32,000 nt of DNA. Source: Candidatus Saccharimonadota bacterium (lineage in GTDB: Bacteria; Patescibacteriota; Patescibacteriia; 2-12-FULL-60-25). Where the stretch lies: positions 30,001 through 62,000 of the forward strand of contig JALHOH010000002.1 of NCBI GenBank assembly GCA_022843095.1, read 5' to 3'. Below are positions 4,452 to 31,524 of this stretch, piece after piece. A program made the position numbers and the translations under genes. Below the pieces are notes generated by a model, which saw nothing but the letters and a program-made list of their open reading frames with translations, made no database searches and was not told the origin of the DNA. Numbering within the stretch: position 1 is the stretch's first letter; each line of letters starts with the position of its first letter.

Positions 4452-4514
4452 ACAGGTTCGGTGGTTGTCAGGATGGCCATTTTCTGGCATGACTTCACAA
4501 GGAGGTAGGGTGTC

Positions 4515-4916: not shown

Positions 4917-4921
4917 TTCTG

Positions 4922-4947
4922 CCGATCTCCTTCGAGATCGGTTTTTT
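4922..4947 (+). terminator. Rho-independent terminator
   Basis: CCGATCTC-CTTC-GAGATCGG followed by TTTTTT. Confidence 0.75.
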
Positions 4948-4992
4948 GTTGTGCACACCCTGCCTCGTGCCCGCCGTGTATCATGTTCGGGT

Positions 4993-6627
4993 ATGCCAAA
5001 ACGCCGCACGTATCTGTTCATCGTAGGTGGGGTGATGTCTGGGGTCGGGAAAGGGGTTGCGTCTGCGTCACTGGGGGCGTTGCTGCAGTGTCGTGGTCAG
5101 CGCGTGACGGCGGTCAAAATTGATCCGTACATCAACGTGGATGCAGGGACGATGAATCCTGTAGAACATGGCGAGGTATTTGTGACCTACGATGGGGATG
5201 AGACAGACCAAGATATCGGGAACTACGAACGGTTTTTGGACGTTGATATTGGGAAGGTGAATTATATGACGACAGGGCGAGTGTATCTGTCGGTCATCGA
5301 GCGGGAGCGTGCCCTTGGATATGGCGGGAAAACCGTCGAGGTCGTGCCACATGTGCCCCTGGAGGTCATTGGACGCATCCGGGAAGCTGCCGAACGGGCA
5401 GACGCGGACGTCACGATCGTTGAAATCGGTGGGACGGTGGGGGAGTATCAAAATGTCTTGTTTTTGGAGGCGGCTCGTATGTTGCGTCAGCAGCAGCCTG
5501 CGGATGTTCTGATTGGGCTTGTGAGTTATTTACCCATTCCTTCCGCAATCGGGGAGATGAAAAGCAAGCCGACGCAATTTGCGGTGCGTGCGATCAACGC
5601 CGTTGGGTTACAGCCGGATTTCATTATCGGACGTTCTTCAAAACCGATCGATCAGCCACGCAAAGAAAAGCTGGCGGCGCATTGCGGCGTGTTGCCGGAG
5701 GATGTGATCAGCGCGCCGGATGCCGCCTCGATTTATGATGTGCCGCTTTGGTTTGAACAGGAGGGTTTGGGGGATCGTGTGATCAAAAAGTTGCGTCTCA
5801 AGGCAAAACCGCTCCACAAGGAGAAATGGGAAGGGCTTGTCCTGAAGCGAAAAAAGGCAGTACAGCCCGTGAAGATTGGGATCGTGGGAAAGTATGTCTC
5901 CACCGGGGATTTTGTCCTTTCCGATGCGTATCTCTCGGTGCTCGAGGCGGTGAAACATGCGGCATGGGCCATTGAGCGGGATCCGCAGATTACGTGGATC
6001 AACGCGGAGGAATTGGAGAAGCCTGGGGTTCGGCTCACGGCGGTGCTGGGAGAGGTGGAGGGGATTTTGGTGCCAGGGGGGTTTGGAACGCGTGGCGTTG
6101 AAGGAAAAATGAAAGCGATCCGGTATGCTCGCGAAAAGAAGATCCCGTATCTCGGGTTATGTTATGGCTTGCAGCTCGCGACCGTAGAATTTGCGAGGAA
6201 CGTGCTCGGGCTTCGTGATGCGCATACCACGGAGATCGATCCGGGAACCAAGCATCCCGTCATTCATTTGATGAACGAACAGGAGGAGCGCATGAAAAAC
6301 GCCGCTTACGGCGGTACGATGCGTCTGGGGTCATATCCCTGCCTACTGGCAAAGGGGTCAAAGGCGCGCGCGTTGTACGGCGCGGATGAGATTCGAGAAC
6401 GCCACCGCCATCGGTATGAATGCAATCCAGCGTATCGTGCGGCGTTGGAGGAGCGCGGTTTGATCGCCAGTGGACTGTCGCCCGATGGGACGTTGGTGGA
6501 AGTAATTGAGCTTGCGGATCATCCATTCTTTTTGGCAGCGCAATTCCACCCGGAATATCTCTCGCGCCCGTTCCGTCCCCATCCATTATTTCTTGGATTC
6601 TTGAAGGCGGCTGCCACGAATAGGTGA
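4993..6627 (+). CDS. pyrG: CTP synthase
   Basis: N-terminal YLFIVGGVMSGVGKG. C-terminal glutamine amidotransferase with LGLCYGLQ (Cys nucleophile) and RHRHRYE. 544 aa from ATG 4993. Confidence 0.95.
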   Translation: MPKRRTYLFIVGGVMSGVGKGVASASLGALLQCRGQRVTAVKIDPYINVDAGTMNPVEHGEVFVTYDGDETDQDIGNYERFLDVDIGKVNYMTTGRVYLSVIERERALGYGGKTVEVVPHVPLEVIGRIREAAERADADVTIVEIGGTVGEYQNVLFLEAARMLRQQQPADVLIGLVSYLPIPSAIGEMKSKPTQFAVRAINAVGLQPDFIIGRSSKPIDQPRKEKLAAHCGVLPEDVISAPDAASIYDVPLWFEQEGLGDRVIKKLRLKAKPLHKEKWEGLVLKRKKAVQPVKIGIVGKYVSTGDFVLSDAYLSVLEAVKHAAWAIERDPQITWINAEELEKPGVRLTAVLGEVEGILVPGGFGTRGVEGKMKAIRYAREKKIPYLGLCYGLQLATVEFARNVLGLRDAHTTEIDPGTKHPVIHLMNEQEERMKNAAYGGTMRLGSYPCLLAKGSKARALYGADEIRERHRHRYECNPAYRAALEERGLIASGLSPDGTLVEVIELADHPFFLAAQFHPEYLSRPFRPHPLFLGFLKAAATNR

Positions 6628-6676: not shown

Positions 6677-6964
6677 TTATTTCTTGGCGGCGGCGTTCAC
6701 GTTGACGTAGGTCGCCATCTTGAACGCACCCGTGTAGCGGCGGACGCGGCGACGGGTGAACTTGACGATCCCGTCTGCCAAGGCAAACAAGGTGTCATCC
6801 GTCCCTTTCTTCACGTTGTCGCCCGGGCGGAATTTGGTCCCGCGCTGGCGCACCAGGATGTTCCCGGTCTTGGCGTATTCCCCCGCATACATCTTGACGC
6901 CCAGACGTTGGCCCTGGGAATCGCGACCGTAACTGGTGGAACCACCGGCTTTCTTATGTGCCAT
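6677..6964 (-). CDS. rpmA: 50S ribosomal protein L27
   Basis: [16 protein letters not shown]...[15 protein letters not shown]. Carries a basic C-terminal insertion ([13 protein letters not shown]). No rplU upstream. Confidence 0.95.
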
Positions 6965-6994
6965 AAGGTGTGATCAATGGAAAATGATGGCAAA

Positions 6995-7023
6995 AGGATA
7001 CGCGTGGACCGCGTGCTTGTCAA
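6995..7023 (-). promoter_or_regulatory. rpmA promoter TTGACA-17-TATCCT
   Basis: Perfect -35 (plus 7018-7023), 17-nt spacer, -10 TATCCT (plus 6995-7000), about 30-nt leader. Confidence 0.55.
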
Positions 7024-7045
7024 GCCAGTGGAACGGCGGTTTAAT
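7017..7045 (+). promoter_or_regulatory. nifU-like gene promoter TTGTCA-17-TTTAAT, 8 nt from ATG 7054
   Basis: The -35 overlaps the rpmA -35 on the opposite strand (CTTGTCAAG palindrome). Confidence 0.45.
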
Positions 7046-7053
7046 GGACATAC

Positions 7054-7305
7054 ATGGCTATGAAAACAAAGGAAGTATTGATGCAGGACGTAGAGCAGGT
7101 GCTGACCGTGCTTCGGCAGGGCCTTGCGATGCATGGAGGAAACTGCGAATTGGTGGATGCAGACCCGGAAACGGGGATCGTTCAGGTACGGATGCAGGGG
7201 GCGTGTGTCGGGTGTCCTATGTCAGAAATGACCTTGAAAGCCGGTATAGAAGACACCCTGAAAGAAATGGTTCCGGAGGTCAAAGAGGTGGTGCAGGTGG
7301 CGTAA
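7054..7305 (+). CDS. NifU C-terminal (Nfu-type) Fe-S cluster scaffold domain protein
   Basis: GGNCELVDAD...VRMQGACVGCPMSEMTLKAGIE with CxxC motif. The start could also be ATG 7060 or 7081. Confidence 0.8.
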   Translation: MAMKTKEVLMQDVEQVLTVLRQGLAMHGGNCELVDADPETGIVQVRMQGACVGCPMSEMTLKAGIEDTLKEMVPEVKEVVQVA

Positions 7306-7328
7306 TTCTTTGTGGATCGCTTTTTGCC

Positions 7329-7706
7329 ATGTGGTTTCGTGCGTGGGCATTCTCGGCGACGCGTGCATGGCAGCGTCCATTTTTTCGTTGGTCTTCTATT
7401 GCGACCGTGAGTTATTCCTTGGTCGCTTCCGGGTATTTCCTGTATCAGGTATTGACGCACATGCGTGACGGCGGAAACGTCATCCTGCATTATTCTGTGT
7501 ATCTGGGGGTGGATGATATCCGTCCCTGGTATTGGGCGTTTTTGTGGCCTGCCCTTTGGATCATAGGCGTCATGATCGACTTTGTGATAGCCTTTGGCGT
7601 CTATCGTGTTGATCCGTTGTGTGCCAACGCCCTCGCTGTCCTTGCCGTTGCCTGGTCTGTGCCGTGGTCGATTGCGCTCTACCATCTTTCCCTTATCAAT
7701 TCCTAA
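7329..7706 (+). CDS. Hypothetical 3-TM membrane protein
   Basis: ATG 7329 is the first start downstream of the nifU-like stop in this frame. Three hydrophobic helices. No family recognised. Confidence 0.45.
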   Translation: MWFRAWAFSATRAWQRPFFRWSSIATVSYSLVASGYFLYQVLTHMRDGGNVILHYSVYLGVDDIRPWYWAFLWPALWIIGVMIDFVIAFGVYRVDPLCANALAVLAVAWSVPWSIALYHLSLINS

Positions 7707-7721
7707 CGCCTCGTAAGAGGT

Positions 7722-8771
7722 ATGTATCAAGATCTCTCCCTTGCCGTTCGTCCGCTCGCCTTATTGGCCGCCGCGTTTGCCGCCTCTGCTGCCGGAATGC
7801 CTCTGCTGATTCGATTATTGCGTCGGTACAAGATGGGCAAATCCATCCGAACGGCGGCGGATGCGCCCGTGATGCATGCGCTGCATGCAAAGAAAGCGGG
7901 AACGCCTACGATGGGGGGGATGATTATTTGGATCGTGACGCTGCTCGTCGTGGGAGTGCTCGAGCTTGGGTGTTTGGCGTTTGGTGAAGGGAGCCTTGCC
8001 TGCACATGGTCGCTTTGGAATCGCGCGCAAACATGGGTACCGATTGGTCTCATGGTGGCTGCCGCGTTGGTTGGATTGGTGGATGATTATCTAAACGTCA
8101 TTCATTCAGGACCAAAAGGCGGTGGTCTACGCGTACGTCATCGGTTATTGCTTTATACCGCCATCGCCGTGGTGGGAGCCTGGTGGTTTTACACAAAATT
8201 GGAATGGAGCGTGATTGGGATTCCGTTCGTGGGAAACATTGATCTTGGGTGGTGGTACGTACCGTTTTTCATCCTCGTTGTCGTTGCAACACAGCATAGC
8301 GTGAATGTGACGGATGGGTTGGATGGATTGGCGGGCGGGACGTTGTTGTCTTCCTTTGCGGCGTATGCGGCCATCGCCTGGTCGCAGGGGCGTTTTGATG
8401 CGGCAACGCTTTGCACCATCATGATCGGCGCGTTGATGGGATTCCTGTGGTACAACGTAAATCCGGCGGATGTGTTTATGGGAGACACGGGGGTCATGGC
8501 GATGGGGACGGTGCTGGCACTCATGGCAATGCTGACCAACACCCCGCTTTTGTTGATTCTGATCGGACTCCCGTTTGTCGTCGAAAGCGCCTCAGTGTTG
8601 ATTCAGGTGACAAGCAAGAAACTGCGCGGGGGTAAGAAGGTGTTTATCAGTGCCCCATTGCATCACCATTTGGAGGCGTCGGGATGGAGTGAGCCGCGCA
8701 TCGTCATGCGTTCTTGGATGATTTCGTTTGTGCTCGCCGGGCTTGGAACGGTGCTTGCGCTCATCGGGTAG
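7722..8771 (+). CDS. mraY: Phospho-N-acetylmuramoyl-pentapeptide transferase
   Basis: HAKKAGTPTMGG, NVTDGLDGLAGG, SAPLHHHLEASGWSEPRIV. About 10 TM helices. Confidence 0.92.
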   Translation: MYQDLSLAVRPLALLAAAFAASAAGMPLLIRLLRRYKMGKSIRTAADAPVMHALHAKKAGTPTMGGMIIWIVTLLVVGVLELGCLAFGEGSLACTWSLWNRAQTWVPIGLMVAAALVGLVDDYLNVIHSGPKGGGLRVRHRLLLYTAIAVVGAWWFYTKLEWSVIGIPFVGNIDLGWWYVPFFILVVVATQHSVNVTDGLDGLAGGTLLSSFAAYAAIAWSQGRFDAATLCTIMIGALMGFLWYNVNPADVFMGDTGVMAMGTVLALMAMLTNTPLLLILIGLPFVVESASVLIQVTSKKLRGGKKVFISAPLHHHLEASGWSEPRIVMRSWMISFVLAGLGTVLALIG

Positions 8772-8788
8772 GGGGTCGTGCGCGATTT

Positions 8789-8797
8789 TGGTATAGT
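8789..8797 (+). promoter_or_regulatory. Extended -10 promoter TGgTATAGT, 6 nt upstream of ftsW ATG 8804
   Basis: Read directly. Same geometry as 665-673 and 16265-16273. Confidence 0.5.
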
Positions 8798-8803
8798 GAA
8801 CGC

Positions 8804-9931
8804 ATGGCATTCATGGATCGCCTGCGGGCGCTGGATCCCGGCGTCGTTGCGTTGACCGCCGTGATTTTGGCGTTTGGACTCGCGATGCTCATGTCTGCGA
8901 CCGGACCGATCGCTGTGCAACGTACCGGCGACAGTTTGTTTTATGTGAAGCGTCAGTTGCTTTCGGGGGTGCTGCCTGGGTTGTTTGGGTTTTTTACGCT
9001 CGCGCTCATCGATTATCGACGTTGGCGACCATTCGCATTTTTTTCTCTGGTCGCCTCGATCTTGCTCCTGCTGCTTGTCTATATCCCGGGCGTCGGATTT
9101 GAATTAGGCGGAGCGCATAGTTGGGTGTCGCTAGGCGGATTCACCTTTCAGCCTTCTGAGTTGGTGAAGCTCACGTTTCTCGTGTACGTCGCCGCGTGGC
9201 TCGCCGTCCGGGAACGGGAAGACGTCCGCTCATTCGAGCGCGGGTTTATCCCATTTTTTGGCGCGGTCGGGTTGATTGCGCTCATGCTTATCCTGCAGCC
9301 GGATACGGGGACGATGTCTGTGATCGTCGGGACGGCGCTTGTCTTGTATCTCGTGTCCGGTGCGCCCCTCCACTGGTTTGCAGGGGTGTGCGTCCTTGGG
9401 TTGACCGGGTTGTACCTTCTTATCAAGTCTTCGCCGTATCGCACGGCGCGATACATGACGTTTTTGCATCCGGAGCTTGATCCAAAGGGGATTGGGTATC
9501 ACATCAACCAAGCGTTACTTGCGATTGGTTCGGGTGGGATCTGGGGGGTGGGTTTTGGGCATTCGCGGCAAAAATATTTGTATCTTCCAGAAGTCGAGTC
9601 TGACTCGATTATTGCCGTAATAGGAGAAGAGATGGGCTGGATCACGATTGTGGTATTATTGAGTTTGTACGTGGCACTCGTGTTACACGCATTTCGGATC
9701 GGTCGAGCTGCGCGCGATCCGTTCGGGATGTATCTCGCAGTTGGGATCGGGGCATGGATGGGAATTCAGGTGGTCTTGAATATTGGCTCGATGACAGGTT
9801 TGCTTCCCATGACCGGTGTCACGCTTCCGTTAATTTCTCATGGCGGGTCTTCGCTTGCGGTGAGCCTGACTGCATTGGGTTTACTGGCGGGTATTCCGCA
9901 ACACGCTGGTGCACGTCCATCAACATTATGA
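8804..9931 (+). CDS. ftsW: SEDS-family lipid II flippase / peptidoglycan polymerase FtsW
   Basis: FQPSELVKL, LQPDTGT, LPEVESDSIIAVIGEEMG and PLISHGGSS motifs. Polytopic. Confidence 0.9.
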   Translation: MAFMDRLRALDPGVVALTAVILAFGLAMLMSATGPIAVQRTGDSLFYVKRQLLSGVLPGLFGFFTLALIDYRRWRPFAFFSLVASILLLLLVYIPGVGFELGGAHSWVSLGGFTFQPSELVKLTFLVYVAAWLAVREREDVRSFERGFIPFFGAVGLIALMLILQPDTGTMSVIVGTALVLYLVSGAPLHWFAGVCVLGLTGLYLLIKSSPYRTARYMTFLHPELDPKGIGYHINQALLAIGSGGIWGVGFGHSRQKYLYLPEVESDSIIAVIGEEMGWITIVVLLSLYVALVLHAFRIGRAARDPFGMYLAVGIGAWMGIQVVLNIGSMTGLLPMTGVTLPLISHGGSSLAVSLTALGLLAGIPQHAGARPSTL

Positions 9932-11175
9932 AATTTTTGCTCGTTGGAGGGGGTTCGCTTGGACCGGTGACTCCGCTTATCGCGTTTGCCTCTGCCTTGA
10001 AGCGCCTCCATCCGGAGGCGACGTTTGCTTGGGCGGGGACGCCTGATGGCCCGGAGCGAAGTGTCGTCGAGCACGCCGGCTTTTCTTTCTCTCCCATTCC
10101 CGTTGCAAAATTGCCACGGTATCCCAGTGTCCGGTTACTTTCATTTCCGTTTGATTGGTGGCGCGCCAAGCGCGCCGCGCGTGCCTGTCTCGGCACGGAA
10201 CGGCCGGATGCTGTGATTACGGCAGGTGGCTTTACCGCCGTTCCGGTCGTTTCTGCGGCTGCAGCAAAGGGGATTCCATGTTTTACGCACCAGCTGGATT
10301 TGGTCCCTGGTCTTGCGAACAAGCGCATTGCAAAGCGTTGCCGATTTGTGACCACCACATTCGAATACGAAAAACCTCCATTTGGAACGTGGGTGAGTGA
10401 TGAGCCCATCCCGACCCCTATGCGGTTTGCGGATGCGGCTCTACCTTCGCGTGATGAAGCTGTGCGTGCCTTTGGACTTGATCCCACTCGTCCGGTGATC
10501 GTTGTTGTGGGAGGGGGAACGGGAGCGCATCGGCTAAATACACATCTTTGGAGAACATTGGATGCGTGGCTTGCATTTACGCAGGTGATTCATGTGACGG
10601 GCATTGGGAAGGGATCTGAAGGGGTGTCACGAAGCGGGTACGTTCAAAAACCACTGCTTGAGGCAGAAGCGATGCTTCAGGCTTATGCGGCGGCGGATCT
10701 GATGGTTGGTCGTGCAGGTATCGGATTCTTAACGGAATGCGCCGGGTTAAAGAAGGCCTGTATTTTGGTTCCGATCCCATCAAATCAGCAAGAATATAAC
10801 GCACGAGCCGTCGAAGAGCGTGGTGCCGCAGTAGTGTTGGACCAAAACGTGTCTTCCTTTGATGGGGATCTGCCAGAAACGGCACGGCTCTTGCTTGGTG
10901 ATGCGGAAGAGCGTGGACAGATGGGGGAGCGATTACACAAGGCGCTCCCGACCGATGACGGATCGGTATGGGCGACAAAAGTATTGCGTGAATTGGGGGT
11001 GAGAATGCCGGCCCAGGAAGGGGCCAAAAAACCGTTTACGTTGCAGGAAAAAGAACACGAGGCCCCTGCAGTTGAGACGGATGCAGAGCCGGTAAAACCG
11101 TCTGCTTCAGCAACGCGTCCTAAAAAGCGGCCAGCCGCAAAGAAGAGTGTTCGACGGAGTCGGATCGCATCTTGA
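9928..11175 (+). CDS. murG: UDP-GlcNAc:lipid I N-acetylglucosaminyltransferase MurG with basic C-terminal tail
   Basis: ATG 9928 overlaps the ftsW stop (ATGA). N-terminal VGGGSLGPVTP loop, GRAGIGFLTECA...LVPIPSNQQEYNA. About 55 extra Lys/Arg/Pro/Ala-rich C-terminal residues. Confidence 0.85.
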   Translation: MKFLLVGGGSLGPVTPLIAFASALKRLHPEATFAWAGTPDGPERSVVEHAGFSFSPIPVAKLPRYPSVRLLSFPFDWWRAKRAARACLGTERPDAVITAGGFTAVPVVSAAAAKGIPCFTHQLDLVPGLANKRIAKRCRFVTTTFEYEKPPFGTWVSDEPIPTPMRFADAALPSRDEAVRAFGLDPTRPVIVVVGGGTGAHRLNTHLWRTLDAWLAFTQVIHVTGIGKGSEGVSRSGYVQKPLLEAEAMLQAYAAADLMVGRAGIGFLTECAGLKKACILVPIPSNQQEYNARAVEERGAAVVLDQNVSSFDGDLPETARLLLGDAEERGQMGERLHKALPTDDGSVWATKVLRELGVRMPAQEGAKKPFTLQEKEHEAPAVETDAEPVKPSASATRPKKRPAAKKSVRRSRIAS

Positions 11176-11223: not shown

Positions 11224-12276
11224 ATGCAGCATCTCGACGCATGGCGCACGCGTTTTCATCCAATTCTTGAGGAATTGGTGGAGGAGCGTATTGCGGAATT
11301 CAGGGCAAAAACCAAGGAGTCTGTTTTGCGATCGCTTCTGGATCATGTGAAGCCGCTCGTCCTGGCGGGAGGAAAACGGATTCGACCCTACTTGGCGGCC
11401 ATGGTATTTGAAGCGACCGGGCGTTCGTCCGAAGAGGTGTTGCGCGTGCTCTGTGGATTGGAGCTCTTTCATGCCTTTGCGCTTGTCCATGATGACATCA
11501 TGGATCACGGGGAGATGCGCCATGGGGTCAGTACCATTCATACCTATGCGGCACAGGGGTACGTGCAGAGTCCACGTGCAGCAGAACTGGGTCGAAATCA
11601 GGCAATTTTGATTGGAGATTTGCTGTTTGCGTGGGCAGAGCGATGTTTTGGACAGATCCCATCGGTTCCGGCAGAGGCGGCGGATCAAGCAAGAGCCTAT
11701 TTCTCTGTCATGTGTGAGCAGGTCGTGTTGGGGCAGATGCTGGACGTCCATGCAACGCATGAGCCATTCGCGAGCATGGAGGACGTCATTCAAAAAATGT
11801 CGTTAAAAACGGCGGGATATACGTTTGTTCATCCGTTACAGATCGGTGCAGCGCTCGGGGGTGCACCCGTGTCCTGGATGGAATGGGCGGAGGCATTCGG
11901 TCGTCCGCTTGGTCTTGCGTTTCAGCTGCAGGATGATGTGCTTGATATTTGCGGAGAGGCGGCGGTTTTAGGAAAACGCCCGTGTATGGATGTACGTGAT
12001 CGTCAGCAAACGTGGGTATCAGAATGGATGCGACGGCATGCGCCTGATGCATGGAAGACGTTGCATGATACGTGGTGGGGTCGCGCGTTTTCTGTGGATG
12101 AAGAAGGGGAGGTGCGCGCGTTGTTTCAGCGTTCCGGGGTATTGGAAGCGGCGGATGAACAGGCACGACGTTGGTTGGAGGAGGCGCACATGGCCCTGAC
12201 ATCCGCTCCGTTTCAGGGCGCGACACGTGCCCCGTTTCAGGAACTGCTTCAGAAGCTCACCGATCGGAATACGTAA
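11224..12276 (+). CDS. crtE: Polyprenyl diphosphate synthase, probable geranylgeranyl diphosphate synthase
   Basis: FARM LVHDDIMD and SARM FQLQDDVLD. Phe at position -5 before an uninserted DDxxD fits C20 chain-length control. Sits upstream of crtB/crtI. Confidence 0.8.
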   Translation: MQHLDAWRTRFHPILEELVEERIAEFRAKTKESVLRSLLDHVKPLVLAGGKRIRPYLAAMVFEATGRSSEEVLRVLCGLELFHAFALVHDDIMDHGEMRHGVSTIHTYAAQGYVQSPRAAELGRNQAILIGDLLFAWAERCFGQIPSVPAEAADQARAYFSVMCEQVVLGQMLDVHATHEPFASMEDVIQKMSLKTAGYTFVHPLQIGAALGGAPVSWMEWAEAFGRPLGLAFQLQDDVLDICGEAAVLGKRPCMDVRDRQQTWVSEWMRRHAPDAWKTLHDTWWGRAFSVDEEGEVRALFQRSGVLEAADEQARRWLEEAHMALTSAPFQGATRAPFQELLQKLTDRNT

Positions 12277-12279
12277 TCT

Positions 12280-13149
12280 ATGGATGCAACACTCCATGCT
12301 GCGATTCGTCACTGCCGAGCGCTCCATCGCATGCATGGCAAGAGTTATTATTTCGCAACCGCATTATTTCCAAAGGATCTCCGCGACGCGACGTATGCCT
12401 TGTATGCATTTTTTCGAGTGCCGGATAACCTGGTAGATGCGGCGCATGCGGATGTTGTGCAGGCAGAAGCGGCGTTAGATGCGTTTCAGGAGGGATGGAA
12501 GCGGGCGTACCAGGAAAAAACGTCTGACGACCCTGTTTTGCATGCGACGCAATGGGTGTTTCATCAGTATGGGATCCCGTTTGCGCTCTCCACGGATTTT
12601 TTGCAGGCCATGCGGCAAGATCTTCACAAGACGCGCTATGCGACGTATGAAGCCTTGCGGCAATACATGTGGGGATCTGCTGCCGTGGTCGGACATATGA
12701 TGTGCTACGTGATCGGGATGAACGATCCGCGTGCGCTTCCGTTTGCGGAGAAGCTGGGCTACGCGATGCAGCTGACGAATTTTCTTCGCGATATTGGGGA
12801 GGATGTGGACGATCGTGGACGCATTTATCTTCCTGCGGATGAGCGCGCCGCGTTTGGTGTGACGGATGAAGTGGTGCAAGTGCATCAGATGTCTCCGGAG
12901 TTCATTTCTTTTCTTCAAGAGCAAATCGCGAGTGCCGATCGGTTATACGCTGAGGCAGAGCCTGGAATCGCGCTTCTGCATCCGCGTGGACGCTCGGCGG
13001 TTCGCGTGGCAAGTCGTCTGTATCAGCAGATTCTTCGCAAGATCGAGGCAAATCAGTATCGGGTGTTTGAAGGACGCGTCAGAACATCATTTTTGGAAAA
13101 ATGTATTCTAGCTCTTCGTGCGTTATGCATCAGAAACAGGTCATCGTGA
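12280..13149 (+). CDS. crtB: Phytoene synthase
   Basis: SYYFATALFP, YAFFRVPDNLVD (DxxxD), NFLRDIGEDVDDRGRIYLP. Confidence 0.9.
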   Translation: MDATLHAAIRHCRALHRMHGKSYYFATALFPKDLRDATYALYAFFRVPDNLVDAAHADVVQAEAALDAFQEGWKRAYQEKTSDDPVLHATQWVFHQYGIPFALSTDFLQAMRQDLHKTRYATYEALRQYMWGSAAVVGHMMCYVIGMNDPRALPFAEKLGYAMQLTNFLRDIGEDVDDRGRIYLPADERAAFGVTDEVVQVHQMSPEFISFLQEQIASADRLYAEAEPGIALLHPRGRSAVRVASRLYQQILRKIEANQYRVFEGRVRTSFLEKCILALRALCIRNRSS

Positions 13150-14630
13150 TCGGGGGTGGATTTGGAGGGCTTGGCGTGTCGGCGCTGTTGGCAAAAAAAG
13201 GGTATCGCGTAACGTTGCTTGAAAAAAATGAGCAGTTGGGCGGACGGGCGAGTCGGCTTTCCGTCGACGGATTCACCTTCGACATGGGGCCGACCTGGTA
13301 TCTGATGCCGGACGTGTTTGACCATTTTTTTCGGTTGCTCGGGACATTGGCGGCGAAAGAATTATCTCTTGTTCAGTTGCAGCCATCCGATCGGATTTAT
13401 TTTAAAGGATCCGGAAAAACGGTGGAGCTGTTTGCCGATCGTGTACGGGACCGCGAAACGTTTGAGCGTCTTGAGCCTGGGGCGGGTGCCGCGTTTATTT
13501 CGTACTTGGATCGGTCAAAGGAGCAGTATGAAATTGCGAAGCGTTCATTTTTGTATCGCAACTATGATCATGTCTGGGATTTTTTGAATCGTCAGACCTT
13601 GGTTGATGGAACGCGGCTTTCGGTGTTCCGCCGGATGCATGGGTACGTATCCTCGTTTTTTCGGACGCCGGAAGCGCAAAAACTGATGGAGTATCAGCTG
13701 GTTTTTTTGGGAAGTTCTCCGTATCAGGCGCCGGCGCTGTACAACTTGATGAGTCACGTGGATTACGATCTGGGCGTGTTCTATCCGATGGGGGGGATCT
13801 ACGAAGTCGTGCGCGCGATTGAACGCCTTGCGCGTGCGTCGGGGGTAGAGGTGCGGACACAGGCGCCGGTGGAGCGGATTCTCGTGGAACGTGGGCGCGC
13901 CGTGGGTGTTCGTTTGGAATCCGGAGAAGAGCTAACAGCGGACGCCGTGGTTTCGAACGCGGATCCACGCTGGACGGATGAGCAATTGCTGCCCGCCGGA
14001 TCGCGCGACCGCTCTGCGGGGTATTGGCGTCGCCGTACGCTTGCGCCCTCGGCATTTATTCTTTTCTTGGGGGTGAAAAAGAAGTTTGAAGGGTTGCGGC
14101 ACCATAGTTTGTTGTTTACGGAAGATTGGAAAAAGAATTTCATGGAGATTTTTGAACGCCCTGCGTGGCCGGAAGATCCGTCGTTGTACGTCTGTGCACC
14201 GTCTGTGACCGATCCAAGCGTTGCGCCACCTGGTCATGAAAATCTGTTCGTCTTGGTTCCGATTGCGCCCGGCCTCGCCGATCATGCGGAGGCGCGTGAG
14301 GCGTATGCGCAAAAAATCCTCCGGATGATGGAGGAACACATGGGGTTTGCAGGCTTACGCGAGAATCTCGTTCTTCAGCGATCGTTTTGCGTATCGGATT
14401 TTGCGTCGCGGTATCACGCGGATCGAGGGACGGCGCTGGGTTTGGCGCATACCCTTGCGCAGACCGCCGTGTTTCGGCCCAATAATATCAGCAAACGTGT
14501 CGGCGGATTGTATTATGTCGGCGCCGGAACCAATCCGGGGATTGGAATGCCGGTGTGTCTGGTCAGCGCCGAACTCGCGTATAAGCGGATTGTGGGAGAT
14601 CGATCCATCGGACCGCTTGAGACGTTGTAG
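13125..14630 (+). CDS. crtI: Phytoene desaturase (CrtI family)
   Basis: VIVIGGGFGGLG FAD fold, FDMGPTWYLMPDVF, C-terminal YYVGAGTNPGIGMP. ATG 13125 overlaps the crtB 3' end by 25 nt. Confidence 0.9.
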   Translation: MHQKQVIVIGGGFGGLGVSALLAKKGYRVTLLEKNEQLGGRASRLSVDGFTFDMGPTWYLMPDVFDHFFRLLGTLAAKELSLVQLQPSDRIYFKGSGKTVELFADRVRDRETFERLEPGAGAAFISYLDRSKEQYEIAKRSFLYRNYDHVWDFLNRQTLVDGTRLSVFRRMHGYVSSFFRTPEAQKLMEYQLVFLGSSPYQAPALYNLMSHVDYDLGVFYPMGGIYEVVRAIERLARASGVEVRTQAPVERILVERGRAVGVRLESGEELTADAVVSNADPRWTDEQLLPAGSRDRSAGYWRRRTLAPSAFILFLGVKKKFEGLRHHSLLFTEDWKKNFMEIFERPAWPEDPSLYVCAPSVTDPSVAPPGHENLFVLVPIAPGLADHAEAREAYAQKILRMMEEHMGFAGLRENLVLQRSFCVSDFASRYHADRGTALGLAHTLAQTAVFRPNNISKRVGGLYYVGAGTNPGIGMPVCLVSAELAYKRIVGDRSIGPLETL

Positions 14631-14634
14631 AAGC

Positions 14635-15504
14635 TCACGAAGTCAACCAGAGCGACCAGGCAAAAAGCAGCATGCCGGCAACCGTGTTGATAAATGGAAA
14701 TGCGCGGTAGACCGCGAAGAATCGCATCGGTGCATCAAAGACGCGAAGCGCGTGAAGCATGAGTAGCACATACCCGGCGCCCAAGAATTTAAACAGGGCG
14801 AATCCGGTGGCGAGGATGGCGAGTGTCGCGGCGCAGGCGTACAGCGCAAGACAGAATAGAAGCGTTCCACGTCGTCCAAGGGTGGTGGCGATGGTAGAGA
14901 GGTGTGCGGCGCGATCGGCTTCGATATCGGGGATGGCGCTGAAGGCGTGCATGGCAGCGCACCAAAGCGCCGCGGCAAGCAGGAGCCGCGTATCGAGCAC
15001 GGATCCACCGGCGAGCAGATAGCCGATGATGCCCGGAACGGCGTACAGGGCATTGCTTGTACTATCCAAAAATGGACGCGCTTTCAAGCGCAGCGGGGGG
15101 AGTGAATAACTAACGCTGAGGAATAAAAAGGCGGCGAACCACAGCCGAGTAGGGGCGAGTGGGGCCCACACAAGCCACAGTAGGAGAAATGGAAGGGTGA
15201 GACCCGCGATCGTGCGCAACAGCGCGGGCGCATCCGACGGAGAAAGGCGGGACTCATACCCGTCTTTTTTTGTATTTTGCGCGTCGGTATCCAGGTCTGC
15301 CGCATCGTTGACACCGTACAAAAATAGATTTGCCGGGAACGACCACCAAAGCATGTTCAGAAGGAGTGCGGGAAGTTGTGTCGAGGGGGGAAGACCCGGT
15401 GCTGCGGCAACACCAACAAGAAACGGTCCAAGGAGATACAGCCAAAAACGCACACGACTCGTGCGTTTCGCGACATTCCAGGGTACGATAGTCCACGCAT
15501 GCAT
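14635..15504 (-). CDS. UbiA-family prenyltransferase, lycopene elongase (LyeJ/CrtEb)-like by context
   Basis: YGVNDAADLDTD (NDxxDxxxD) and IPDIEADRAAH (DxxxD) motifs. About 8 TM helices. Convergent with crtI (4-nt gap) and head-to-head with the CruF-like gene. Confidence 0.7.
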   Translation of the reverse strand: MHAWTIVPWNVAKRTSRVRFWLYLLGPFLVGVAAAPGLPPSTQLPALLLNMLWWSFPANLFLYGVNDAADLDTDAQNTKKDGYESRLSPSDAPALLRTIAGLTLPFLLLWLVWAPLAPTRLWFAAFLFLSVSYSLPPLRLKARPFLDSTSNALYAVPGIIGYLLAGGSVLDTRLLLAAALWCAAMHAFSAIPDIEADRAAHLSTIATTLGRRGTLLFCLALYACAATLAILATGFALFKFLGAGYVLLMLHALRVFDAPMRFFAVYRAFPFINTVAGMLLFAWSLWLTS

Positions 15505-16239
15505 AGAATGAGTATGCCTCGCGCGCACGTTTTGGCAACCTGCGCCACCGGATGTGCCGTCCTTGTGGGGTGGATGGCTGCATCATTTACAGGGAATACG
15601 ACTTGGGTCGCCATACCTGCGCTTCTTTTAATGTCTCTCCCTTCGGTCACCGCATTTGTCCGATGGGTGGGGTGGACGCGTGGGGGTGCGGCATTGATTG
15701 CGTTATCGTTGTTTGCATTTCTTGTCGAAAGCGCGGCGGTATACACGGGGTTTCCGTATGGCGCGTTTACGTACGGCACTGGCTTGGGCCCCCGGGTTTT
15801 TGGGTTGGTTCCTTGGGTTGTGCCGCTTGGGTGGATCCCGTTGATTCTTGGCGCCGTACCGCTTGCGTCACGCATGGCGAGTGGATTTGCCTGGCGCGTT
15901 GCCTGGGCGGGAATCTTTGTCATGCTCATGGACGTGGTATTGGATCCCGGAGCGGTTCGGATGGGGCTCTGGACGTTTGTGGAAGGCGGAGGTGTTCATG
16001 GCGTTCCGATTCAGAATTTTGTGGGGTGGGTGATGACGGGGGTCTTGGGGAGTGGAATCGTGCAGGCATTTTCTCGTTTCACCACAACGCCGACCCCAGC
16101 GGCGCTTTGCATCAGCGCGGCGCTGTCGATGGGATTCTGGTTTGGGTATGCGCTCGGGGCTTCGCTTTGGGTTTCAATTGTCGTCGGGTGTGTCATGCTT
16201 GCGGGGATGGGATGGATCGTGTGGAGCGAAAGAAAATAG
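15499..16239 (+). CDS. Carotenoid biosynthesis membrane protein, CruF-like (carotenoid C-1,2 hydratase family, PF04240-like)
   Basis: [25 protein letters not shown] and [14 protein letters not shown] resemble the Caroten_synth/CruF family. Start uncertain (ATG 15499, 15508 or 15514). Confidence 0.65.
15511..15538 (-). promoter_or_regulatory. Candidate promoter TTGCCA-16-CATACT, 6 nt upstream of prenyltransferase ATG 15504
   Basis: Read on the minus strand. Lies inside the 5' coding region of the divergent CruF-like gene. Confidence 0.4.
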
Positions 16240-16279: not shown

Positions 16280-17497
16280 ATGCAACCGATCATTGCGCCA
16301 GGGACGACCTCCGGGCCAAATCCGTACATCATTATCGCCCTGCTTGCCGGCGCAGCGATTAGTTATTTGTGGACGCGCAATCGTTGGCGTCGCGAGCATG
16401 GAAAAGATGGCGGCACGTTGCCGGCAGGGACGGTGGGGAATGTGCTTGCAAAATACACCGAAGATCTGACCGCGCGTGCCGAACGCAAAGAATTGGATGC
16501 GGTTATTGGGCGGGATGAAGAAATTCGTCGCGTGATGCATATTTTGTCCCGACGAACGAAGAATAATCCCTTGCTGCTTGGAGAGCCTGGGGTCGGGAAG
16601 ACGGCAATCGTGGAAGGGATCGCACGACAAATCGTGGCAGGGGATGTTCCTGATGCGATCAAAGGTAAGCGTGTCCTTGCGCTGGATTTGGGGGCGCTGA
16701 TCGGCGGAACCAAATACCGTGGAGAATTTGAAGAGCGCATGAAAAAGCTCACCGAAGAAATTCGGGCCGAAGCGCGTCGTGTGATTTTGTTTATTGATGA
16801 GGTGCACATGGTGGAGCAGGCAAAAGGGGCAGAAGGGGCAATCAACGTGTCCGATATTTTGAAGCCGGCGCTCGCGCGTGGAGAATTGCAGATGATCGGG
16901 GCGACGACGTGGCGGGAATTTGAGATGTATATCAAAACCGACGATGCGTTGAACCGACGATTGCAGCCGGTCATCGTGGGCGAGCCTTCGGTTGATGCGG
17001 CGCTCGCCATTTTGCGGGGATTAAAGCAGACCTACGAAGCGTATCATCGTGTCGTGTATGACGAGGCGGCGCTGCAGGCGGCTGTGTCACTGGCGAAAGA
17101 GAAGATTCGAGATCGGTATTTGCCGGACAAAGCGATTGACTTGATTGATGAAGCAGGCGCGCGCGCATCCATTGAGGCGTCGCATGATGGAAAGCATGCC
17201 TTGGGGCTCTTGCATGCGGCCGGGGTAGAAAAGCAAGCAAAATTACAAACCGTGGATCGTCGGATCGCCATGCTGCGCGAAGAGTTGGGGCATGTGACCA
17301 GGCTTGCCGAAGATATGCGGCATGATCCGGAGTTGGACGAAATTCGCTTGCGATTGTCGCATGTCGTCGAGGCGGCAGAACACGTTCGTCAGGAGCTCGA
17401 TACCGGCGCTGGAGATCGTTTGCCGGTTGTGACCGCGACGGATATTCAGGACATTGTGGATGATTGGGTCGGAGCCGCTCCAGCAAATCCCCGGTAA
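16280..17497 (+). CDS. Membrane-anchored ClpB/ClpC-like AAA+ ATPase, D1 module only
   Basis: N-terminal TM ([16 protein letters not shown]). Walker A GEPGVGKT (16580-16603), pore loop KYRGEFEER, Walker [37 protein letters not shown]. Short coiled coil, then the D1-D2 linker [16 protein letters not shown] followed by a stop. Confidence 0.85.
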
Positions 17498-17500
17498 TTG

Positions 17501-17509
17501 TGCTATTCT
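17501..17509 (+). promoter_or_regulatory. Possible internal extended -10 TGcTATTCT, 10 nt upstream of ATG 17520
   Basis: Begins 4 nt downstream of the AAA+ stop codon (17495-17497). Would allow independent transcription of the downstream gene. Confidence 0.35.
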
Positions 17510-17519
17510 TTTGCCATCT

Positions 17520-18914
17520 ATGCCTCCTTCAACCATGACAAAAACCACCACCCAAACCACCACGGCCACAAAAGTGGGCGTTGCGGTGACGATCGGGTTC
17601 GTGGCGGGTCTTGCTGCATACGGTTTTGGATTTTTACCCACGTTTGATCAGGGATACACCGAAGATGTGGCGCAGGTCGATCCGTATGCGATGTGCGTGG
17701 ATTCCTGCAAAGATCCCTTGGTCGGCTGTTTTGCCGCGGGTGGGGACGCGGATAGCTGTTATGAGCCGTACAATAGTTGTATTGCGAGTTGTAAACAGGT
17801 GAACGCACCGCAAACCGAAGAGATCGCCGTGCAGGATCAAACTGGGCAGTCACAACAAGGAGGGGAAAGTTGCAGTGAAATGTGTATGGTGAAGGTATCC
17901 GCCTGCTTGCAGCGCGTGGCAGATGGGAGTCAAGAAAACTGCGCAGAACAAAAAATCCTGTGCCAAATGTCCTGTGCACCGGCATCCTCGCAAACACAAG
18001 CCTGCTTTGGTCAATGTGATGCAGAGTTAAATAGTTGTCAGGGTGCGCGACGCGGAGACGATGATCGTGTGCAACAGTGTCGCTCGCAACATGAATCCTG
18101 CTACGAACGGTGCTACGACAATGAAAAGCGGGCGATTGAGAATGAACCAGCGCCTCCAACACCGCCCATTGCGCAAGATGTCCCGCCGGCACCGCCGATT
18201 CCTCCAAAGGAAGAGCCACCCGTCGAAGAACCAGCTCCGACGCCACAGGTTCCGGATGCAGATGTCTCTGGGTCCTGGATGTTGCCCACGGGGATGCTTG
18301 TCCTCGAGCAGAATGGGAAGTCGGTGAAGGGAAGCGCGATCCTGAACGTCCTTTCTTCAAAGCCTACGGATGGAGTGATTCCGGTGCTCAAGATGTATGT
18401 CCCGGTAGAAGGTACGGTGACGGGCAATACGTTCACGGGTGTATGGAAGGCGTGTTATTACTCGGAATCAAATTGCAGCAACAACCCCCTCGTTCTCACG
18501 TTTGATCCGGAAAAGCAGCAGTACAAGGGAGAAAAAGGATGGTGCGGAGCGCGTCCCGGGGTGACCTTCCCAGACGGCTGTGGGTTCTCCATGAAGGGGT
18601 GGAAGGTGAACGGGGCGATCACATGCGCGAACCCTACGATGACGTTGGAGCAGTGGGATGATCAGGTTAAAGGAACGATTTGCAACCGACCGTTTAAGGG
18701 AAGTATCGCGCCGACAACGGGCTTGAACGTCCACCTGACGGGTTTCATCGACAACAAGCCGGATACCTCGCATTCACTCAACTTCTACCTGTTTTTGGAG
18801 GAGAACGAGCCGTATGCAGGGAAGCCGTCGCAGATGCGTGGAAACTTCGCCATCAGCGAACCTCTCTGTGCCGCGGCGCCAGGAGAAGAGTTCCCAGAAC
18901 CGTGTGTTCAATAA
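17520..18914 (+). CDS. TM-anchored exported cysteine-rich protein (3 x six-Cys modules, Pro-rich linker, duplicated C-terminal domain)
   Basis: Thr/Lys-rich N-tail, then TM VGVAVTIGFVAGLAAYGFGFL. 18 Cys in three CX3CX6C...CX6CX3C modules. PAPPTPP...PAPTPQVP linker (18147-18254). 8 further Cys in the C-terminal half. Start could also be ATG 17535. Confidence 0.7.
   Translation: MPPSTMTKTTTQTTTATKVGVAVTIGFVAGLAAYGFGFLPTFDQGYTEDVAQVDPYAMCVDSCKDPLVGCFAAGGDADSCYEPYNSCIASCKQVNAPQTEEIAVQDQTGQSQQGGESCSEMCMVKVSACLQRVADGSQENCAEQKILCQMSCAPASSQTQACFGQCDAELNSCQGARRGDDDRVQQCRSQHESCYERCYDNEKRAIENEPAPPTPPIAQDVPPAPPIPPKEEPPVEEPAPTPQVPDADVSGSWMLPTGMLVLEQNGKSVKGSAILNVLSSKPTDGVIPVLKMYVPVEGTVTGNTFTGVWKACYYSESNCSNNPLVLTFDPEKQQYKGEKGWCGARPGVTFPDGCGFSMKGWKVNGAITCANPTMTLEQWDDQVKGTICNRPFKGSIAPTTGLNVHLTGFIDNKPDTSHSLNFYLFLEENEPYAGKPSQMRGNFAISEPLCAAAPGEEFPEPCVQ
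17694..17792 (+). repeat. Six-Cys module 1 (protein-level repeat) C-x3-C-x6-C-x9-C-x6-C-x3-C
   Basis: CVDSCKDPLVGCFAAGGDADSCYEPYNSCIASC, counted from the translation. Confidence 0.8.
17871..17975 (+). repeat. Six-Cys module 2 C-x3-C-x6-C-x11-C-x6-C-x3-C
   Basis: CSEMCMVKVSACLQRVADGSQENCAEQKILCQMSC. Confidence 0.8.
18003..18113 (+). repeat. Six-Cys module 3 C-x3-C-x6-C-x13-C-x6-C-x3-C
   Basis: CFGQCDAELNSCQGARRGDDDRVQQCRSQHESCYERC. Confidence 0.8.
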
Positions 18915-29705: not shown

Positions 29706-31262
29706 TTAGCGTGTATCGGTCACGGTAAAGTGAAGCATCATCCCGGTTTCCAAGTGCTCCGCGATGTGACAATGCATCATCCATGTGCCGGGGTTCGACA
29801 GATCGACCAAGAGATCCATCGTAGTGCCTGCAGGAATGTTGACCGTATCCTTCCATGTATCCGGCGCAACAGGAACGCCATTGACCCGTGCGACTAAAAA
29901 TCGCTGGCCGTGAATGTGGAAGGGGTGTTGCATCGGATGCATGCCCGTGTTCGGGTTTTGAACGCGGAGCATGAGTTGCGTTCCTTTTGGAAAGGTCCAA
30001 TCGATGGCTTCATTCGTCTTTCCTGTTTGCGTGTCTTGTAAGGTCCAGGTCAGGTGGTTGGCCATCATCCCTTGGTTCATGGCGCCCATCGTGTCTTCCC
30101 ACTCCACGCCGTCTGTGTTTGCGTCACCCATATTCATGGAAGGCATGGCATGGCCACCGTGCATCATGGGTCCAGAAGGCATTTCCAGACCGATGGTGAG
30201 TGTTTTTTGCGGCGGGAGCGCGAGTGCCTCCTTGAACGGTTCGATGGAGGCCGTGACGGCTGGATAGGTGCGAAGCGTCGAGGTGGTTCCGGTGGCTGGA
30301 TTGGAAGGAGGGGCGATGCGGATCGTGGCAAGATCCGTCCGGCTTCCCGTGGGAGGCGCATGTTGGATGACGAGGATCCCGGGCTGCGCAGGGAGCGTGA
30401 TTTCTACGATCGCGCGTTCCGACGGGGAGAGATCCAGTGTTTCCAAGATGGACTCTTGGATCGCAGGGCCCTGATCGCTTCCGATGCGTTTCATGGTGAG
30501 GCCAGGAATGGTGATGCGAAGCGGGCGCGCATTCGCGGCGTTCAAGAGGAAGAGTCGCAGGGTTTCTCCGGCACGTCCCTCGATGGGGAAATTGGGGGTT
30601 CCATTTGTGAGGAGAAGGTTGCCATATCGGCCCATCAACGTGTGTGAAACCGTGTCTTTTGGAAACGGAACGAGCCGACCGTTTTGTACCAGAAGATCAT
30701 GGAATGCGAGCGGAATTTCTTGACCCACTCGGTTCCAAGAATCACCGGTCGTGGGTTCGACGATGAAAAAACCGAATGCCCCGTGGTGCAATTGTTTTGC
30801 CGCGTTCAGATGGGGGTGGTACCAAAACACCCCGGCGTCTGGAAACGTCATTTCATGCGTGAACGATTCCCCAGGCTGAATCGGTTCCTGAGTGATGCCC
30901 GGAACGCCGTCCGCTTGCATGGAAGCGCGTACGCCATGCGGATGCAGCGTGGTGGGTTCCGCGAGGCCATTCTCGACCACGACCGAAAGGCGTGATCCTT
31001 GTTTGACGCGGATCACGGGGCCGGGGATGGATCCATTGTAGCCAACTAATTCCATCGGCAGATCCGCGATGGTGGTGGTGATCGTTTGAAGTCGCAACGC
31101 ATAGCGATCTCCATCGGCCAAAGTGATGGTTTGCGTTGGCGCACGTCCGACCGGTGCCTGATGTGCAGGTGTATTTGCATCACGGATAAACAAGAACGCC
31201 GAGAAGGAGAGGACGGCGAAAAAAAGGATGGCTCCGACGGCGAGAGGGAGAGGCTTCTTCAT
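29706..31262 (-). CDS. Multicopper oxidase (CueO/CopA-like cuprous oxidase)
   Basis: Copper ligand motifs HPHG, WYHPH, HPMQHPFHIHG and HCHIAEHLETGM. Met/His-rich insert MPSGPMMHGGHAMPSMNMG...MGAMNQGMMANH (30054-30182). N-terminal signal/anchor MKKPLPLAVGAILFFAVL. ATG 31262 lies 1 nt after the csoR stop. Confidence 0.9.
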   Translation of the reverse strand: MKKPLPLAVGAILFFAVLSFSAFLFIRDANTPAHQAPVGRAPTQTITLADGDRYALRLQTITTTIADLPMELVGYNGSIPGPVIRVKQGSRLSVVVENGLAEPTTLHPHGVRASMQADGVPGITQEPIQPGESFTHEMTFPDAGVFWYHPHLNAAKQLHHGAFGFFIVEPTTGDSWNRVGQEIPLAFHDLLVQNGRLVPFPKDTVSHTLMGRYGNLLLTNGTPNFPIEGRAGETLRLFLLNAANARPLRITIPGLTMKRIGSDQGPAIQESILETLDLSPSERAIVEITLPAQPGILVIQHAPPTGSRTDLATIRIAPPSNPATGTTSTLRTYPAVTASIEPFKEALALPPQKTLTIGLEMPSGPMMHGGHAMPSMNMGDANTDGVEWEDTMGAMNQGMMANHLTWTLQDTQTGKTNEAIDWTFPKGTQLMLRVQNPNTGMHPMQHPFHIHGQRFLVARVNGVPVAPDTWKDTVNIPAGTTMDLLVDLSNPGTWMMHCHIAEHLETGMMLHFTVTDTR

Positions 31263-31263
31263 A

Positions 31264-31524
31264 TTATTTTCGCTTGAGTTGGTAGACCTGAAGAATTTCT
31301 TGAACAGCCTTTTCTTCGTTCCCTTCTCGGATTTGTTGAATCGCGCAATGCGAAAGATGTTGCGCGAGTAGCAGATCTTCGATGGAGGTGAGCGCCTGTT
31401 TGATGGCGGAGGATTGTGTAATGACGTCGATGCAATAGGCATGGTCCGCGATCATTTCGCGCAGACCGCGCACCTGGCCTTCGATGATTTTTAATCGACG
31501 TTCAAGAGAGGCGGGGTGTTTCAT
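31264..31524 (-). CDS. csoR: CsoR-family copper-sensing transcriptional repressor
   Basis: LKIIEGQVRGLREMI. Cu(I) ligand pattern C-x25-H-x3-C (YC...QHLSHC). ATG 31524 chosen because the listed TTG 31560 coincides with the -35 box. Confidence 0.9.
   Translation of the reverse strand: MKHPASLERRLKIIEGQVRGLREMIADHAYCIDVITQSSAIKQALTSIEDLLLAQHLSHCAIQQIREGNEEKAVQEILQVYQLKRK

Follow-up and report, generated by a model that had tools for sequence, protein, structure and literature searches.

What kind of structure is formed by a protein that repeats the same mirror-symmetric set of six cysteines three times within one short region? The gene in question is located in a stretch of 32,000 nucleotides from a Candidatus Saccharimonadota bacterium (contig JALHOH010000002.1, positions 30,001 to 62,000); this whole stretch is called the window here, and coordinates given without a locus refer to it. 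An earlier note, made from the sequence of the window, had described an exported protein with three tandem modules, each of which could be either a helical hairpin stapled by three disulfides or a part of a cysteine-lined bundle binding soft metals. Judged from sequence comparisons, the modules are an undescribed repeat family, situated next to the membrane anchor in surface proteins of Patescibacteria, also known as the candidate phyla radiation (CPR). We consider it fairly probable that each module is an extracytoplasmic alpha-helical hairpin with three nested disulfides, serving as a membrane-proximal stalk module.

The translation of 17454-18914 (+) contained three copies of the pattern C-x3-C-x6-C-x(9/11/13)-C-x6-C-x3-C, encoded at 17694-18113 (+). 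By scripted counting, and with numbering from a TTG codon at 17454, the cysteines were found at positions 81, 85, 92, 102, 109, and 113, at 140, 144, 151, 163, 170, and 174, and at 184, 188, 195, 209, 216, and 220, respectively. There were no further cysteines between or within the three modules, so that both the spacing given in the earlier note and its statement that these are the only cysteines of the region were borne out. Such a pattern could in principle be due to chance, to the composition of a cysteine-rich stretch of low complexity, or to a reading frame that does not code for a protein. The only support for this came from protein searches limited by a 5-mer word index, in which the whole protein retrieved only itself and a profile of the module gave no candidates; a profile of the membrane anchor described below found two proteins. 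The shuffling control was confined to the 146-residue cysteine-rich stretch and is conservative, since all 18 cysteines of the stretch were retained. One or more complete modules arose in 545 of 200,000 shuffles, and six half-motifs, which is the number observed, arose in 2 of 200,000. A strict regular expression for the module, of the kind proposed in the earlier note for protein databases, was run over six-frame translations of 134 kb, comprising the window and the related loci, and matched only in proteins carrying the same anchor, with zero matches outside this protein family. The modules are moreover conserved in 14 proteins of independent genomes and metagenomes, and the synteny is conserved as well. 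The conservation data refute an origin by chance or artefact, the probability of which we regard as practically negligible.

Altogether, 33 distinct modules with identical cysteine spacing were recorded in these 14 related proteins. All six cysteines were invariant in an alignment of 32 modules, the loop in the middle varied from 8 to 15 residues, and identity to module 1 outside the cysteines was only 16-36%. Stray cysteines were absent from the module arrays, except for two extra ones in a protein with 11 modules. The three modules of the window, 33-37 residues long, are alike at the protein level in little besides their cysteines, and no meaningful repeats were found among them at the DNA level. 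The lack of a common DNA repeat suggests that they are old duplicates whose cysteine framework has been held by selection. The number of copies per protein ranged from 0 to at least 11: none in locus L006, one, two or three in most proteins (three in the window), and 11 strict copies in locus L005, where adjacent copies are near-identical and separated only by PPT-type linkers. Over the whole family, linkers between modules were from 3 to more than 60 residues long. The modules thus appear to act as duplication units, and they were always placed between the N-terminal membrane anchor and C-terminal domains of interchangeable type. Two anchor paralogues in a row, with one and three modules, respectively, were seen in locus L008 (Table 1).

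The relatives were collected by two kinds of searches. An exhaustive search of representative proteins gave 27 matches, which were sorted into groups. Group A (P0004, P0011, P0020, P0021, P0022, P0025, and later P0028) matched the N-terminal part of the window protein; its members have a T/K-rich tail, a transmembrane helix ending with the invariant L-[AG]-A-Y-G-F-G-F-x-P, and then one or two six-cysteine modules. In group B (P0003 to P0027) the match was limited to the C-terminal domain. The top matches of this search, P0002 (5185 aa, 16 stretches) and P0018 (19 stretches), were discarded as spurious, because they summed weak repeats to the Pro-rich linker and to a short NGNTF-GVW motif. Further loci were obtained by scanning for the anchor signature [GS]L[AG]AYGFGF[LMI]P, and these came from three genome records and five metagenome contigs. 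Two of the genome records are labelled Patescibacteria, and the third is labelled as an uncultured gammaproteobacterial metagenome-assembled genome. The latter (L003, CAYTIN010000008.1) is titled "uncultured Gammaproteobacteria bacterium", and its cassette and flanking genes (SMC-like and DHH-family) closely parallel those of the Patescibacteria locus L002, so the gammaproteobacterial bin label may be wrong. A search of the literature revealed no paper with the string AYGFGF and nothing relevant on cysteine-rich surface proteins of CPR bacteria.

The location of the modules relative to the membrane depends on the gene model. A database protein, P0001, is 100% identical to the window protein and starts at ATG 17460, and the open reading frame list behind the earlier note used TTG 17454. 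The true start is probably ATG 17520 (MPPSTMTK...). Homologues begin with "MP.." at a distance of 18-30 residues ahead of the transmembrane helix; their starts lie a few tens of bases past the stop of an upstream AAA+ gene and are preceded by a T/C-rich leader that lacks a Shine-Dalgarno sequence. The configuration at 17520 is identical, and starts earlier than 17520 would overlap the AAA+ gene by approximately 40 nt. Since the start position in the homologues, the distance to the upstream stop, and the T/C-rich leader all agree, we prefer ATG 17520. The residue numbers of the earlier note, given above, are accordingly 22 too high, while the base coordinates are unaffected; residues are numbered from ATG 17520 from here on.

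The N-terminal tail contains K/R residues and is followed by a single helix of 21 hydrophobic residues (Kyte-Doolittle maximum 1.93) and then by acidic sequence. With lysines ahead of the helix and acidic residues behind it, the positive-inside rule gives an N-in/C-out orientation and indicates that the module region is extracytoplasmic. The claim that the modules are located outside the membrane was in this way supported; the description as an exported protein holds for the external part, but the protein is better described as membrane-anchored with an external ectodomain. Residues 1-40 of the window protein could be aligned with six relatives (alignment A1), in which both the T/K-rich tail and the signature helix are present and the residues L, A, Y, G, F, G, F, and P of the signature are invariant. 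Signal peptidase may cleave the window protein after LAA. The Pro/Glu-rich linker which follows the third module is a probable extended spacer.

Residues 1-223 were modeled with AlphaFold2 (AF2) on an alignment of 16 rows. Two helices were predicted in each of the three modules, in agreement with the helix-loop-helix that had been expected from the cysteine spacing. According to DSSP, the helices comprised residues 55-72 and 77-93 in module 1, where the predicted local distance difference test (pLDDT) for the block was about 90, residues 117-134 and 141-151 in module 2 (pLDDT 65-73), and residues 157-176 and 181-207 in module 3 (pLDDT 75-84). The orientation of the modules relative to each other was undefined, with a predicted template modelling score (pTM) of 0.29. 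The distribution of proline and glycine agrees with the predicted helix-loop-helix and is independent of the model: over 33 modules, the loops (334 residues in total) accounted for 21 Pro and 21 Gly, helix 1 (297 residues) for two Pro, and helix 2 for seven, which a position profile placed mostly at positions 3-4, i.e., in the first turn. A Foldseek search of the N-terminal multi-module model against PDB listed unrelated helical proteins and nothing below E = 1, which is not surprising for hairpins strung like beads on flexible linkers.

The cysteines of helix 1 are spaced i, i+4, and i+11 and those of helix 2 j, j+7, and j+11, which puts them on one face of each helix in a mirrored register. 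Spacing, AF2 model, and the Pro/Gly distribution together give antiparallel helices with mirrored cysteines on one face, the hallmark of disulfide-stapled alpha-hairpins. The core positions of each helix are 1, 5, 8, and 12, i.e., a 4-3-4 spacing, and three of these four are cysteines. The fourth layer is made up of position 8 in helix 1, a small residue (mostly A, N or S), and position 5 in helix 2, a hydrophobic one (mostly L, Y, A, F or M). In an antiparallel hairpin position 1 of helix 1 would face position 12 of helix 2, and likewise 5 would face 8, 8 would face 5, and 12 would face 1, so that the helix register would give the nested pairs C1-C6, C2-C5, and C3-C4 and one non-covalent layer.

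We suggest that each module of 33-37 residues folds as an autonomous extracytoplasmic hairpin, in which the core positions of the two helices would face each other in antiparallel register, with three of the four layers being Cys-Cys. After export the pairs would be oxidized to the three nested disulfides, and the resulting compact knot would resist proteases and unfolding. The modules, strung together by Pro/Thr/Gln-rich linkers between the N-in/C-out anchor and a variable C-terminal working domain, would form the membrane-proximal stalk of a surface-display scaffold of Patescibacteria, the size of which would be set by the copy number. Here we infer the oxidized state, the pairing scheme, and the role as stalk. 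Disulfides are favored by the extracytoplasmic site, the parity of six cysteines, the mirror symmetry, and the few stray cysteines, and the occurrence of the modules as spacers of variable copy number ahead of enzymes and binding domains was counted in the same direction. The ectodomain of the window protein has 18 cysteines in the modules and 8 in the C-terminal domain, both even numbers, and the conserved C-x11-C loops of the latter suggest that structural disulfides are formed outside the cell in this lineage.

Several points weigh against this reading. The AF2 alignment was shallow, modules 2 and 3 were predicted with only moderate confidence, and the packing between modules was undefined. 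The pairing scheme would follow from the helix register and not from modeled SG-SG distances. Anoxic groundwater is the habitat of many Patescibacteria. Both anchor paralogues of locus L006 are devoid of modules, which shows that the modules are accessory and dispensable for the core function of the anchor. Finally, a hairpin has both of its termini on one side, so that modules would add compact, robust bulk rather than length. This leaves the role as stalk weakly grounded; the reach of a stalk would be supplied by the Pro-rich linkers and not by the hairpins.

The same cysteine ladders, if kept reduced, could bind Cu(I), Zn or Cd, and the protein would then be an extracellular metal buffer or store, similar in concept to the copper storage protein Csp. 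The 18 cysteines on facing helix faces and the acidic character of the module region would suit such a function, and many of the relatives originate from low-oxygen groundwater according to their record titles. A gene of a three-domain multicopper oxidase is located 11 kb downstream of the module gene, and this too was counted in favor. However, it is unlinked in the other loci, and a link between the two genes was rejected owing to the distance and to its absence from related loci. Neither Csp/DUF326 nor metallothioneins were matched in Pfam, even at E ≤ 10, and only one His and three Met are present in the 140-residue cysteine-rich region. The units are two-helix hairpins of variable copy number instead of a four-helix bundle, they occur as spacers ahead of proteases and binding domains, and the strict parity of six cysteines with mirror symmetry is needed by nested disulfides but not by metal sites. 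On these grounds the Csp-like bundle, the second alternative of the earlier note, is disfavored, and we hold metal binding to be unlikely.

Another alternative is that the hairpins serve assembly, packing either within one chain as a six-helix bundle or between chains, with some disulfides being intermolecular; a multimeric stalk of this kind might match a hexameric AAA+ base. In its favor, hairpins alone add no length, the conserved neighbor is an AAA+ protein of a hexamer-forming type, and small-xxx-small motifs are found in the sequence of the transmembrane helix. The low pTM of the model, with no confident contacts between modules, copy numbers of 0, 1, 2, 3, and 11, which do not fit a fixed bundle, and the wide range in linker length make this quite unlikely. 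A redox function, in which labile disulfides at the cell surface would relay thiol-disulfide exchange, take up oxidants or sense the redox state, would agree with the dense cysteines on an exposed surface protein, and CX3C motifs can be redox-active in some proteins. Yet there is no CXXC or thioredoxin-like motif in the protein, a structural role is suggested by the variable copy number and by the placement of the modules between anchor and cargo domains, and there is no redox-related neighboring gene apart from the unlinked multicopper oxidase. We consider such a function very unlikely.

Returning to the disulfide-stapled hairpin, we compared it with known families. The whole window protein had no match in Pfam-A (no family at E ≤ 1), NCBIfam or PDB sequences; the three-module region alone had none in Pfam-A at E ≤ 10, and the profile of 32 modules had none among PDB sequences at E ≤ 10. 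In the relative with 11 modules, the modules were likewise unmatched in Pfam. In these databases the module therefore did not turn out to be an already described domain, an outcome that would have spoken against the earlier note.

A likeness in principle is seen to the CHCH or twin CX9C proteins (Cox17 and Mia40 substrates; PF06747), small antiparallel helix-loop-helix proteins which fold oxidatively outside the cytoplasm and whose facing cysteines, on one face of each helix, form nested disulfides as proposed here. They have two disulfides and CX9C motifs, whereas the module would have three and has CX3C and CX6C (C1 to C3 being CX10C); moreover, CHCH proteins are eukaryotic, reside in the mitochondrial intermembrane space, and are single-copy, in contrast to the bacterial, membrane-tethered modules with 0-11 tandem copies. 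The fold predicted by AF2 is a helix-loop-helix as in CHCH proteins, but the CX3C/CX6C spacing is present in all 33 modules in place of the twin CX9C of the family (PF06747, Cmc1, COX17), and hmmscan against Pfam-A returned no CHCH profile. Small Tims (Tim9/10; PF02953) have two CX3C motifs 11-16 residues apart and four cysteines in total. The outer four cysteines of the module are likewise a twin CX3C on two antiparallel helices, but the module has an extra, conserved inner pair, each cysteine of which is seven residues away from a CX3C, and in the window the two CX3C motifs are separated by a longer spacer of 23-27 residues. Small Tims assemble into hexameric chaperones, and there was no match to them in Pfam or by sequence. 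The plant alpha-hairpinins (CX3C-Xn-CX3C peptides such as Luffin P1 and EcAMP1) share with the proposed module the cysteine-stabilized helical hairpin, the extracellular location, and the high stability. They are free peptides cut from precursors and have two disulfides, while the module has six cysteines and is embedded in a membrane protein of 464 aa; Luffin P1 (6o3s) was found by Foldseek at a non-significant level (E 9.7, TM score 0.49 on the target, 25% identity). In Csp1 and Csp3 (DUF326, PF03860) cysteines line helix faces as they do in the modules. Csp folds as a four-helix bundle, binds many Cu(I) through the reduced cysteines of its core, and has another cysteine spacing, in contrast to the six-cysteine modules, which have no Pfam match to it and were predicted by AF2 as separate two-helix units that are not confidently packed together. 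The module would work on the same principle as the known cysteine-stapled alpha-hairpins but is a member of none of the CHCH, small Tim, and alpha-hairpinin families. What is new is the module family itself, so far found only in Patescibacteria-type genomes and metagenomes, and its invariant AAA+ partner, while the principle of the fold is familiar.

The domains carried behind the modules differ between the proteins. In the window this is an all-beta domain in which a unit of about 100 aa is duplicated, and both copies end with WCG[AW]R...C (C-x11-C); the consensus of the unit is G-W-x-x-N-F-G...V-x-G-T-Y...W-C-G-A-R...G-C (alignment A5). AF2 predicted 16 strands (pLDDT 86.9, pTM 0.81). Foldseek of this model against PDB found nothing at E ≤ 1e-3. 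Laminin LG domains came first, at E about 3e-3 but with TM scores that were very low, and the list also contained the beta-barrels fHbp, avidins, LolA, and TbpB/HphA. A ligand-binding barrel is plausible. The same type of beta domain was found behind other N-terminal parts as well, e.g., behind the Ig-like N_BRCA1_IG in P0010. Most relatives carry a different common domain, which ends with ...IWSDLS..PH....GGSRDW and has no Pfam match. P0022 has Peptidase_C25 behind the modules (E 1.8e-25), and the C-terminal part of the 11-module protein gave a weak match to Peptidase_C11 (E 1.5e-4, below the Pfam cut-off). With the tandem beta domain, the other common domain, Peptidase_C25, and the weak Peptidase_C11, the C-terminal domains are interchangeable. 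Table 1 lists the family members in which clan-CD cysteine peptidase domains follow the modules.

The gene immediately upstream encodes an AAA+ ATPase, in the sequence of which GEPGVGKT (Walker A), ILFIDEVH (Walker B), and KYRGEFE (pore loop) are all intact. NCBIfam models of ClpB, ClpA, and ClpV matched it only over D1 and far below their cut-offs. Its N-terminal transmembrane helix, QQALxLxILIGxGLxYWW, is followed by K/R. Wherever a related locus included upstream DNA, a homologue was found directly upstream and on the same strand, namely in L001/L004, L002, L003, L005, L006 (twice), L009, L010, L011, L012, and L013; in L010 it is represented only by a C-terminal fragment. In L006 the AAA+/anchor pair is tandemly duplicated. 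As the AAA+ neighbor is kept even for anchor proteins without modules, the functional couple seems to be the AAA+ protein plus the anchor and its tail, and the gene order suggests an undescribed two-gene cassette. In locus L012 (1-3976) the pair comes directly after MraY-FtsW-MurG. The window has the same MraY-FtsW-MurG order (7722-11175), with a carotenoid cluster (11224-16239) inserted before the AAA+/anchor pair. This cluster comprises a polyprenyl synthase, a phytoene synthase, an amine-oxidase-type desaturase, a UbiA prenyltransferase, and a Caroten_synth protein; carotenoid genes seem unusual in a Patescibacteria-like genome.

The pair of genes may also be read in a wider sense, as a surface machine specific to Patescibacteria. 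The AAA+ ring would engage the T/K-rich tail and install, hold, pull or extract the anchor protein, the disulfide-locked hairpins would be unfolding-resistant stoppers or force-bearing elements, and the stalk would carry proteases or ligand-binding barrels, possibly for contact with the host in episymbiosis. As in Msp1/ATAD1 and FtsH, an AAA+ ring would be held at the membrane by an N-terminal transmembrane helix, beside a single-pass protein whose cytoplasmic tail is short and conserved. The partner described here is nevertheless of the ClpB/ClpA D1 type, outside the Msp1/FtsH clade and without a protease domain. We regard a machine of this kind as rather unlikely.

Table 1. Coordinates of the module protein, its parts, and associated genes in the window and in related loci. 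Residues are numbered from ATG 17520.
Locus	Feature	Coordinates	Strand	Remarks
Window	Gene of membrane-anchored six-cysteine-module protein	17520..18914	+	464 aa from probable ATG 17520
Window	Alternative starts	TTG 17454; ATG 17460		TTG from open reading frame list of the earlier note; ATG from NCBI (P0001)
Window	Putative cytoplasmic N-terminal tail, Thr/Lys-rich (MPPSTMTKTTTQTTTATK)	17520..17573	+	Residues 1-18; character conserved in family (alignment A1)
Window	Single transmembrane helix VGVAVTIGFVAGLAAYGFGFL	17574..17636	+	Residues 19-39; outer end is signature [GS]L[AG]AYGFGF[LMI]P
Window	Acidic segment			Residues 40-58
Window	Module 1: CVDSCKDPLVGC-FAAGGDADS-CYEPYNSCIASC	17694..17792	+	Residues 59-91; C59, 63, 70 / 80, 87, 91
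Window	Module 2: CSEMCMVKVSAC-LQRVADGSQEN-CAEQKILCQMSC	17871..17975	+	Residues 118-152; C118, 122, 129 / 141, 148, 152
Window	Module 3: CFGQCDAELNSC-QGARRGDDDRVQQ-CRSQHESCYERC	18003..18113	+	Residues 162-198; C162, 166, 173 / 187, 194, 198
Window	Pro/Glu-rich linker (YDNEKRAIENEPAPPTPPIAQDVPPAPPIPPKEEPPVEEPAPTPQVPDADV)	18114..18266	+	Residues 199-249; no AF2 secondary structure after residue 207
Window	C-terminal all-beta domain	18267..18911	+	Residues 250-464; 8 Cys; no Pfam entry
Window	ClpB/ClpA D1-only AAA+ ATPase gene, N-terminal transmembrane helix	16280..17497	+	Pfam AAA, AAA_lid_9
Window	MraY-FtsW-MurG genes and carotenoid cluster	7722-11175 and 11224-16239	+/-	
Window	Three-domain multicopper oxidase gene	29709-31442	-	11 kb downstream
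L001	AAA+ gene	6699-7970		
L002	AAA+ gene	6855-7871		
L003	AAA+ gene	~6750-7942		
L005	AAA+ gene	188-1363		
L005	Family member with clan-CD cysteine peptidase domain behind modules	1417-4297	+	
L006	AAA+ genes	213-1208 and 2920-3927		
L006	Anchor genes	1209-2770 and 3962-5465	+	Both paralogues without modules
L008	Anchor paralogues in a row	293-850 and 811-1543	+	1 and 3 modules
L009	AAA+ gene	741-1937		
L010	Family member with clan-CD cysteine peptidase domain behind modules	271-2853	+	
L011	AAA+ gene	2070-3245		
L012	AAA+ gene	2810-3976		
L013	AAA+ gene	371-1540		

Patescibacteria are a large and mostly uncultivated group, and their surface proteins are poorly understood. The six-cysteine hairpin of 33-37 residues, unmatched in Pfam, NCBIfam, and PDB sequences, adds to these a new and easily recognized extracellular repeat. 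If the cysteines are reduced and loaded with metal, the module would represent a novel kind of repeat for binding metals outside the cell. If the triple-disulfide helical hairpin is true, it would be a very stable scaffold with a possible use in protein engineering. The combination of the module, the AYGFGF anchor, and the adjacent AAA+ gene provides a handle to find and classify surface proteins of CPR bacteria, including gingipain-like and clostripain-like proteases.

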